Notes: a model not told the origin generated them from the sequence alone. Shown: positions 61,235 to 61,385, counted from the first letter of the stretch. The stretch is 64,000 nt of DNA from a phage (GCA_011939005.1 GCA_011939005.1_4858.1), one strand, 5' to 3'. A program made the numbers and translations.

Positions 61235-61315
61235 GCGAGCAAGTGGCAGGGATTCGAACCGTCGAAATATCCGATTATGAGTCGGGTGTTAATTCCTCTA
61301 ACTTCGCTGCTCTTG
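61235..61315 (-). ncRNA. tRNA-like element with intact CAU anticodon stem-loop (Met/Ile-type) but degenerate T-arm and acceptor stem; probable pseudo-tRNA
   Basis: Minus strand reads GUUA-GAGGAAU-UAAC (D-arm), CCCGA-CUCAUAA-UCGGA (anticodon arm), then GGUUCGAAUCC T-loop box whose flanks pair poorly. Confidence 0.3.
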
Positions 61316-61385
61316 CTTTGACCGGACTCGAACCGGCGACCTTCCTCGATGAGGCTGCTCTACCTACCTGAGCTACAAAGCCATT
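61316..61385 (-). ncRNA. tRNA-like element with good acceptor, D- and T-arms but anticodon arm replaced by a short triloop hairpin; probable pseudo-tRNA
   Basis: Minus strand GGCUUUG-UA-GCUC-AGGUAGGUA-GAGC ... GCCGG-UUCGAGU-CCGGU-CAAAGC; the segment between D- and T-arms is about 4 nt too short for an anticodon arm. Confidence 0.3.

Follow-up and report, generated by a model that had tools for sequence, protein, structure and literature searches.

The window analysed here is a 64,000-nt stretch of phage DNA (GCA_011939005.1) that is 95-99% identical to Salmonella phage SPN3US and its relatives, the ~240-kb jumbo phages of the genus Seoulvirus. It contains a gene-poor stretch of 1.6 kb (60858-62427), bordered on one side by the gene for a 273-aa protein (60036-60857) and on the other by that for an 80-aa protein (62428-62670), in which the ORFs are short and non-conserved and no convincing genes can be recognized. 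Two odd tRNA-like elements lie within this stretch, where the original prediction had placed them, and both read on the minus strand: element A (61313-61382, -), a tRNA-like RNA of 70 nt, and element B (61236-61312, -), which reads as a damaged allele of a non-canonical tRNA(CAU). A canonical tRNA-Trp(CCA) gene (62737-62812, -; 63 bits in Rfam) is the only call made by ARAGORN in the 64 kb, and an HslV-like peptidase homologue (PHROG 1040; 62941-63474, -) is encoded upstream of it. Elsewhere in the window, an HNH/NUMOD1 homing endonuclease gene (43532-44398, -) lies next to the DNA polymerase region.

Element A, for which Rfam RF00005 and covariation are the evidence, has the sequence GGCUUUG-UA-GCUC-AGGUAGGUA-GAGC-A-GCCUC-AUC-GAGGA-AGGUC-GCCGG-UUCGAGU-CCGGU-CAAAGCA-A. 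Its acceptor 5' strand (61376-61382, -) is followed by a D arm (61357-61373, -), a shortened anticodon hairpin (61343-61355, -; AUC loop at 61348-61350), a variable loop (61338-61342, -), a T arm (61321-61337, -; T loop UUCGAGU at 61326-61332), the acceptor 3' strand (61314-61320, -) and the discriminator A73 (61313, -). The acceptor, D and T arms are all canonical, as had been described, and A departs from a textbook tRNA in two features, namely a G1·A72 mismatch and the short anticodon arm. For the latter there had been thought to be no room; the arm is shortened to 13 nt (normally 17), with a 4-bp stem and the 3-nt loop AUC, and is not absent.

Against the Rfam tRNA family (RF00005), A scores 37.7 bits and passes the threshold for the cloverleaf family (gathering score 29), with E-values of 2.4e-4 over the whole window and 7.7e-6 over a 2-kb region; in this alignment three bases stand at the place of the 7-nt anticodon loop. 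ARAGORN makes no call for A in the 64-kb window because the anticodon loop has three bases, and it detects no tmRNA there either, A carrying C3-G70 and not the G3·U70 of tmRNAs. A canonical 7-nt anticodon loop, in which position 33 is U and position 37 a purine, is absent from A and from all 10 of its orthologues. When ARAGORN was run on the window and 12 relatives, both A and B were missed in Seoulvirus, and the calls forced on two Machinavirus orthologues of A are inconsistent with each other (tRNA-Pro(cgg) and tRNA-Ile(aat)). Neither element is a canonical, high-scoring cloverleaf by ARAGORN or Rfam. Despite its tRNA descent and a score above the Rfam threshold, A is thus not filed as a tRNA gene because it fails on the anticodon loop. 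The labels given to A in GenBank and other databases range from tRNA-OTHER, tRNA-Asp, tRNA-Pro and tRNA-Ile(aat) to a hypothetical protein on the opposite strand or nothing at all; none of them is right, and A is mislabelled across databases, which gives its description some relevance for annotation. SPN3US_0003, a "hypothetical protein" annotated on the opposite strand over A and B, was treated as spurious because it is broken into ORFs of 42-48 aa in the window. The fold of A itself is thermodynamically unexceptional in the window (z = -1.4), and the fold of the phiEaH2 copy is a clean cloverleaf with four arms (z = -3.3).

Other Rfam matches in the gene-poor gap at E <= 10 are weak and at chance level (L17 leader, CRISPR repeats, miRNAs), apart from RF04354 ("Plastid-ycf2 5'UTR"), which matches the strand opposite tRNAs with up to 36 bits and does so in the window at 61237-61310 (+). 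The consensus of this family is presumably the reverse complement of plastid trnI-CAU, i.e., antisense to it, and its matches were dismissed as an artefact, being mirror images of tRNA genes. YrlA matches reach at most 29.3 bits (gathering score 69) and occur in relatives only, spanning the T arm of B into tRNA-Asn, with none in the window. Similarly, mascRNA-menRNA matches of 25-29.4 bits (gathering score 42.5) fall on other tRNAs of relatives, with no match to A and none in the window.

At the site of A and B, relatives carry a tRNA cluster with 6-10 canonical tRNAs. Its carriers are Machinavirus pSal-SNUABM-04, Huxley, pEa_SNUABM_10, pEa_SNUABM_6, Caitlin and ChrisDB, Erskinevirus phiEaH2, Seoulvirus SPAsTU and the uncultivated 239-kb phage L059. 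In all of these except L059, the cluster ends in a module in which A is followed directly by B and B by tRNA-Asn; L059 has A and B without a tRNA-Asn behind B. This tRNA-Asn (72-76 bits) stands directly after B in MET_P1_082_240, in SPAsTU and in all Machinavirus and Erskinevirus loci, and the spacer between the discriminator of A and the first base of B is zero in 14 of 14 genomes. In the window, positions 61225-61235 (-) comprise CCCCAUUUGUG, which trails B on its 3' side, and the junction that corresponds to the tRNA-Asn position of relatives. The tRNA-Asn gene is cleanly absent here, position 61235 joining 61230 across it in a local blastn alignment. The five-tRNA cassette of SPAsTU and its tRNA-Asn are both missing from SPN3US-type genomes, which retain A-B, and comparison of the window with SPAsTU reveals both losses as clean deletions ending at the edges of A-B; the tRNA-Trp gene is the sole survivor of the cluster of canonical type in the window. 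Three genera, namely Seoulvirus, Machinavirus and Erskinevirus, retain the pair. Between Seoulvirus and Machinavirus, it is the only part of this region of ~2 kb that blastn still aligns, and the protein adjoining it is 27-28% identical between genera; since no other intergenic DNA aligns across genera beside so diverged a neighbour, the retention of A-B is more than chance. Judged by comparison of these genomes, A-B is the conserved end of a tRNA cluster in SPN3US-like, Machina-like and phiEaH2-like jumbo phages. Pattern scans of viral sequences added as new family members only the uncultivated phages (UViGs) L059 and L283 and the L260 group. A scan of a genome collection gave 13 chance matches in bacterial coding DNA, and the A/B junction pattern yielded no new member among the matches listed from a metagenome collection, which were unrelated tRNAs and coding DNA.

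For covariation, the acceptor and T-arm segments of A were joined and aligned for 10 distinct sequences from one phage clade. In this alignment 91.7% of the cells are paired, and the only unpaired position is 1·72, which is G·A in 10 of 10 sequences. Eight of the 12 pairs of the acceptor and T stem have changed on both sides: the acceptor 5' strands read GGCUUUG, GGCUCCG, GGCCUCU, GGUUUCU, GGCUACU and GGCUCCA, and the 3' strand matches each of them. The covariation score of 0.665 compares with 0.241 ± 0.041 for shuffled alignments (reached in 0 of 500) and with at most 0.141 for slid partners, although some of this covariation reflects inherited changes and not independent events, given only ~10 distinct sequences from a single clade. 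G1·A72, G2-C71 and A73 are invariant in all copies of A, which also agree in having a T loop of the form UUCRANU and a GG within the loop of the first hairpin, and C3-G70 is found in 8 of the 10 sequences. Within Seoulvirus, 19 of the 21 cloverleaf pairs are intact in all seven alleles checked, and no pair-breaking change was found among them.

These patterns bear on the proposal that the two elements are decaying tRNA genes. Neutral decay of A and B alike, as leftovers of a shrinking tRNA cluster, would agree with the loss of the SPAsTU cassette and tRNA-Asn from the SPN3US lineage, with the rejection of both elements by ARAGORN, with structure-breaking changes in the B of several isolates and with the small need of this phage for an additional AUA decoder (both described below). 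It is an unlikely explanation, as all pairs of the acceptor and T stem of A have been maintained by compensation in three genera, in spite of flanks that cannot be aligned and a neighbouring protein of such low identity, and the seven Seoulvirus alleles of A are free of pair-breaking polymorphism. Moreover, the other tRNAs disappeared by clean deletions that stop at the edges of A-B, not through decay by point mutation. The signature expected of a neutral pseudogene, i.e., uncompensated mismatches, is not seen in the 10 A sequences. The conservation pattern of A is clear, and unexpected for a supposed pseudogene. Decay thus fits the B of this genome, whose defects are missing in 15 relatives and whose allele recurs in EC001, and does not fit A. 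Two alternatives to decay had been offered, a tRNA-derived structural RNA and a processing signal; for A, the former is the one supported by covariation together with a freely varying anticodon arm.

Across orthologues, hairpins that range from 13 to 51 nt take the place of the anticodon arm of A. SPN3US-type copies have a 13-nt hairpin with the loop AUC, UUU or UUC, whereas in SPAsTU the arm is 51 nt long and consists of a 5-bp stem around a 41-nt insert with an internal GAAA-capped hairpin. In pSal-SNUABM-04 the arm has a 6-bp stem and a 5-nt loop, in L059 a 6-nt loop and in phiEaH2 a GUAA tetraloop hairpin, and the arms of Huxley and pEa_SNUABM_6 (pEa6) are longer and different. Inserts of this length at the anticodon position (41 nt in SPAsTU, longer in Huxley and pEa6) could indicate a real decoding tRNA whose interrupted or abbreviated anticodon arm is repaired by RNA splicing or editing, as could the anticodons that ARAGORN forces on two orthologues. 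This is very improbable: a 7-nt loop could not be assembled from the 13-nt arms of the window, SPN3US and MET, no insert comes near the size of a group I intron or matches an Rfam intron, and the forced anticodons differ among close relatives, in loops devoid of U33 or purine 37. Since the anticodon arm is under no constraint beyond that of being a hairpin, A cannot read a codon. And since compensatory changes maintain its acceptor and T stem in three genera while this arm varies freely, A is, as far as its sequence can tell, a selected non-decoding RNA derived from a tRNA and not a decaying gene.

The ancestry of A was also sought through the best-matching real tRNAs (a Cellulophaga phage tRNA-Met and the tRNA-Ile of Erwinia phage Tellus), which was abandoned as these matches reflect generic tRNA similarity only. 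The idea that A and B are halves of one split or permuted tRNA was likewise rejected, because in relatives both A and B form cloverleaves that are complete in themselves, and B is also found on its own.

Element B has the sequence GAGCAGCG AA GUUA GAGGAAU UAAC A CCCGA CUCAUAA UCGGA UAUUUC GACGG UUCGAAU CCCUGC CACUUGCUC G. It comprises an 8-nt acceptor 5' strand (61305-61312, -), a D arm (61288-61302, -), the anticodon arm CCCGA-CUCAUAA-UCGGA (61270-61286, -; CAU at 61277-61279), a T arm (~61246-61263, -; T loop UUCGAAU at 61252-61258) and an acceptor 3' strand (61237-61245, -), after which comes a G at 61236. The CAU anticodon stem-loop and the sequence GGUUCGAAUCC reported for it are both present. 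Sixteen sequences, that of the window included, were aligned for the analysis of covariation: 91.8% of the cells are paired and 8 of 22 pairs have changed on both sides, which none of 500 shuffles reach. The anticodon arm is near invariant in these sequences, and the 27·43 position is never paired. CAU is kept in 12 of the 16; the uncultivated phages L260, L261 and L266 have AAU, and the loop of Huxley is mutated to CCCAUAC. The acceptor helix has 8 pairs, with an invariant G-C at both ends (the terminal and the eighth pair), of which the Rfam alignment places the outer one at -1:73 (G-1:C73). B is without U8, does not encode CCA, and has as its discriminator C or G, depending on the frame read, and never A. 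A 6-bp D stem is possible in the Machinavirus copies.

The orthologues of B score 30.6-47.6 bits against the Rfam tRNA family and are annotated as tRNA-Ile in pSal-SNUABM-04 (tRNAscan-SE v2.0) and Proteus phage 7 and as tRNA-Met in others. An identical 19-nt anticodon arm is found in canonical tRNAs of 73 other viral contigs. The CUCAUAA loop of B is that of a lysidine-modified tRNA-Ile2 (CAU) or an elongator tRNA-Met, whereas the 8-bp acceptor helix (or G-1:C73), the lack of U8, the 27·43 mismatch and the absence of an encoded CCA set B apart from both. Taken together, B probably belongs to the Ile2/Met type of tRNA(CAU), as a non-canonical form whose acceptor helix has 8 bp. Orthologues of B also resemble tRNA-Sec and allo-tRNAs in their 8 + 5 bp acceptor/T helix and, in pEa6, ChrisDB and L283 only, in a long variable arm; unlike these, they have the anticodon CAU or AAU and not UCA, the variable loop is short in most copies, and no sequence relationship of B to tRNA-Sec or allo-tRNAs was found. 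The 8-bp acceptor helix, conserved in ~18 lineages, might, though this is rather doubtful, single B out as a tRNA that does not take the usual path of elongation. In pEa6 and ChrisDB (loci L010 and L012), the extra arm amounts to ~23-24 nt at the position of the variable loop, with the stem GUUACCC/GGGUAAC in ChrisDB.

Some lineages have B and no A. The uncultivated phages L260 (1810-1886), L261 (1675-1751) and L266 (3273-3349), on contigs of 152-225 kb, contain B on its own, with the 8-bp acceptor helix retained (GACCAUUG/CAUUGGUC, one U·U), and in L262, which is related to the L260 group, the same slot holds a tRNA-Trp and a small ORF. A is absent from L260, L261, L266 and L283, all of which bear B, and is therefore dispensable there. 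The defects of A and B had been called complementary, which is apt as a description; nothing points to a functional complementation of the two, given the lineages with B and without A.

In the window itself, B has no Rfam tRNA match at E <= 10 and no ARAGORN call, and its minimum-energy fold lacks a cloverleaf. The poor pairing of its T stem and acceptor that had been pointed out is borne out by the sequence: GACGG faces CCCUGC in the T stem, and the acceptor has one mismatch and a bulge. In the shared register, the window is the only one of the 16 rows with two unpaired T-stem positions, and the 15 relatives are without these defects; the best alternative register gives a T stem with 4 of 5 pairs, a bulge and a C·C mismatch, and an acceptor with 7 of 8. 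The T stem combines a 5' strand of the SPN3US type (GACGG) with a 3' strand that, like that of the acceptor, is of the phage 1252 type (CCCUGC CACUUGCUC), which accounts for the two unpaired T-stem positions. The identical B allele is found in EC001 and is therefore no sequencing error, and the B of Lh1B has a different T-stem mismatch; within Seoulvirus, the window, EC001 and Lh1B thus each have a B with uncompensated defects. In the ORFs of the window, 4.9 of every 1000 codons are AUA, so that there should be little demand for an extra AUA reader. With its T stem and acceptor weakened, B is probably poorly functional or non-functional in the window and EC001, where it is probably decaying.

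The mosaic make-up of this allele suggests past recombination at the B site. In Salmonella phage 1252 (L007), an HNH homing endonuclease gene (179 aa; Pfam HNH_3, PHROG 59; 2268-2807) directly follows B and sits where relatives have tRNA-Asn, and an equivalent HNH insertion follows the B-only copy of L283 (UViG 3300011862_000001, ~11640-11760). Homing endonuclease genes are a known feature of phage tRNA clusters, and the HNH genes directly after B in these two phages conform to it. The window and EC001 share the 3' half of B with phage 1252, and the endonuclease gene is missing from both. Recombination around the endonuclease gene could have been the source of the mosaic B allele.

How A might be made can be proposed from its position. 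A and B would be co-transcribed from the strand of their neighbours, the minus strand, and host RNase P would cut 5' of A and 5' of B. As no spacer separates them, the cut at the 5' end of B would leave A ending exactly at A73, where the CCA-adding enzyme could act on it. The product would be a stable, L-shaped mimic of a tRNA, which would accumulate, could be recognized by tRNA-processing and tRNA-binding proteins and would not decode. Our best guess is accordingly a mimic that is processed in the fashion of a tRNA and is unable to decode. The combined reading, in which selection keeps A as a tRNA look-alike, B is a damaged odd tRNA(CAU), and the two are co-transcribed and processed by RNase P, is the one we consider reasonably probable.

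Alternatively, A could act in cis as a "tRNA punctuation" that recruits RNase P or RNase Z for the correct ends of flanking RNAs (B, tRNA-Asn or a transcript from upstream), the released A having no role. The conserved parts of A are those that RNase P and RNase Z recognize, namely the minihelix of acceptor and T arm, the first loop with its GG, and the T loop, and both the missing spacer between the A discriminator and the first base of B (in all 14 genomes) and the place of A as the first element of the conserved A-B-Asn module are what punctuation would predict. In the same vein, the invariance of A72-A73 could come from a constraint on the leader of B for RNase P and not from A itself. We regard this cis-acting role as possible though not probable. 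A is intact in SPN3US-type phages in which tRNA-Asn is gone and B is degrading, and lineages with B and without A indicate that B does not need A. Additionally, the sequence just upstream of A is unconserved, with a 257-nt indel between the window and SPN3US, which speaks against the idea that A sets the 3' end of a conserved RNA upstream of it, and processing has no need for an invariant 1·72 mismatch.

If A is instead the selected mimic favoured above, it may act in trans. We put forward, as a rather doubtful extension, that A has a non-decoding job in nucleus-forming jumbo phages, either as a decoy or sponge for host factors or as an aminoacyl carrier that is independent of the anticodon. 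As a decoy, it would catch host factors that have the acceptor end or the elbow of tRNAs as their binding site or point of attack. The unpaired 1·72 position, together with G2-C71 and A73, would hold A away from EF-Tu and the ribosome. In E. coli tRNA-fMet, features of the acceptor stem in the region of the 1·72 mismatch disfavour binding of EF-Tu, for which this tRNA is a poor ligand. A resembles the acceptor end of bacterial initiator tRNAs in its mismatched 1·72, G2-C71, C3-G70 (8 of 10 sequences) and A73, and differs from initiators in having G·A instead of C·A and an elongator-type D stem (C11-G24), and in lacking both CAU and three consecutive G-C pairs in its anticodon stem. The initiator-like acceptor end would fit an off-ribosome role for A, by analogy, and is only a lead. 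A search for a partner gene near A-B found no tRNA-related Pfam domain in 26 nearby ORFs, including that of the syntenic 273-aa protein, and a literature search found no paper describing A or B.

By analogy, the closest functional counterparts of A would be the small RNAs of the T4 tRNA region and those tRNA-like RNAs of eukaryotes and herpesviruses that do not decode. T4 encodes two small RNAs from its tRNA region, RNAs C and D, whose role is unknown (PMC3014915). Like these, A is a small RNA gene inside a phage tRNA cluster. RNAs C and D are longer, whereas A is a tRNA-sized, near-complete cloverleaf that belongs to a clade of nucleus-forming jumbo phages and not to T4-like phages. The mascRNA of MALAT1 and the TMER units of gammaherpesvirus 68 are cloverleaf-like, with an intact acceptor/T region and an aberrant anticodon region, are expected substrates of RNase P and RNase Z, and do not decode. 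A shares with them the intact acceptor/T region and the aberrant anticodon region and is an expected substrate of the same enzymes; unlike A, however, they come from eukaryotes or eukaryotic viruses, and the processing of A is predicted.

Phage tRNAs are usually explained by codon supply and, lately, by evasion of host defences that cut tRNAs. Here, a clade of giant phages retains a tRNA-shaped RNA that does not decode over deep divergence, even where the cassette and tRNA-Asn are missing. If expressed and stable, A would be the bacterial-virus counterpart of the non-decoding tRNA mimics of eukaryotes and herpesviruses, and the genetics available for SPN3US makes it a tractable case.

Some minor observations concern the surroundings of the pair. 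Just upstream of A, the Machinavirus locus L004 (~1975-2003), and likewise L005 and L008, contains a T arm, an acceptor 3' strand and CCA (GUGGUUCAACUCCACGGGAAUCACCA), for which no 5' half is detectable in the three loci; this fragment seems to be what is left of a further tRNA that directly preceded A. The bases that precede G1 of A (61383-61386 in the window) are AAUG in most genomes, with AAAG in ChrisDB, UAAG in L059 and AACG in SPN3US as exceptions. In phiKZ, late promoters have the sequence TATG, in which the G is the start site (PMC4666361); in the phages considered here, the first base of A is a conceivable start of transcription. A scan for promoters and terminators had a yield no higher than in shuffled sequence.

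The window also contains a 257-nt segment (61388-61644) that SPN3US is without. The ~1 kb upstream of A (61388-62427, -) has no convincing gene, is ~80% identical to SPAsTU (62375-61653) and in parts ~70% identical to Machinavirus and Erskinevirus loci, and annotators disagree on its ORFs; it could hold one or more unannotated RNAs or small genes. Directly after the 80-aa ORF lies a GC-rich perfect hairpin, GUGGGCUUCGGCCCAC (62400-62425, -). Its conservation extends to the distant locus L262, and a transcript may end or be processed here.
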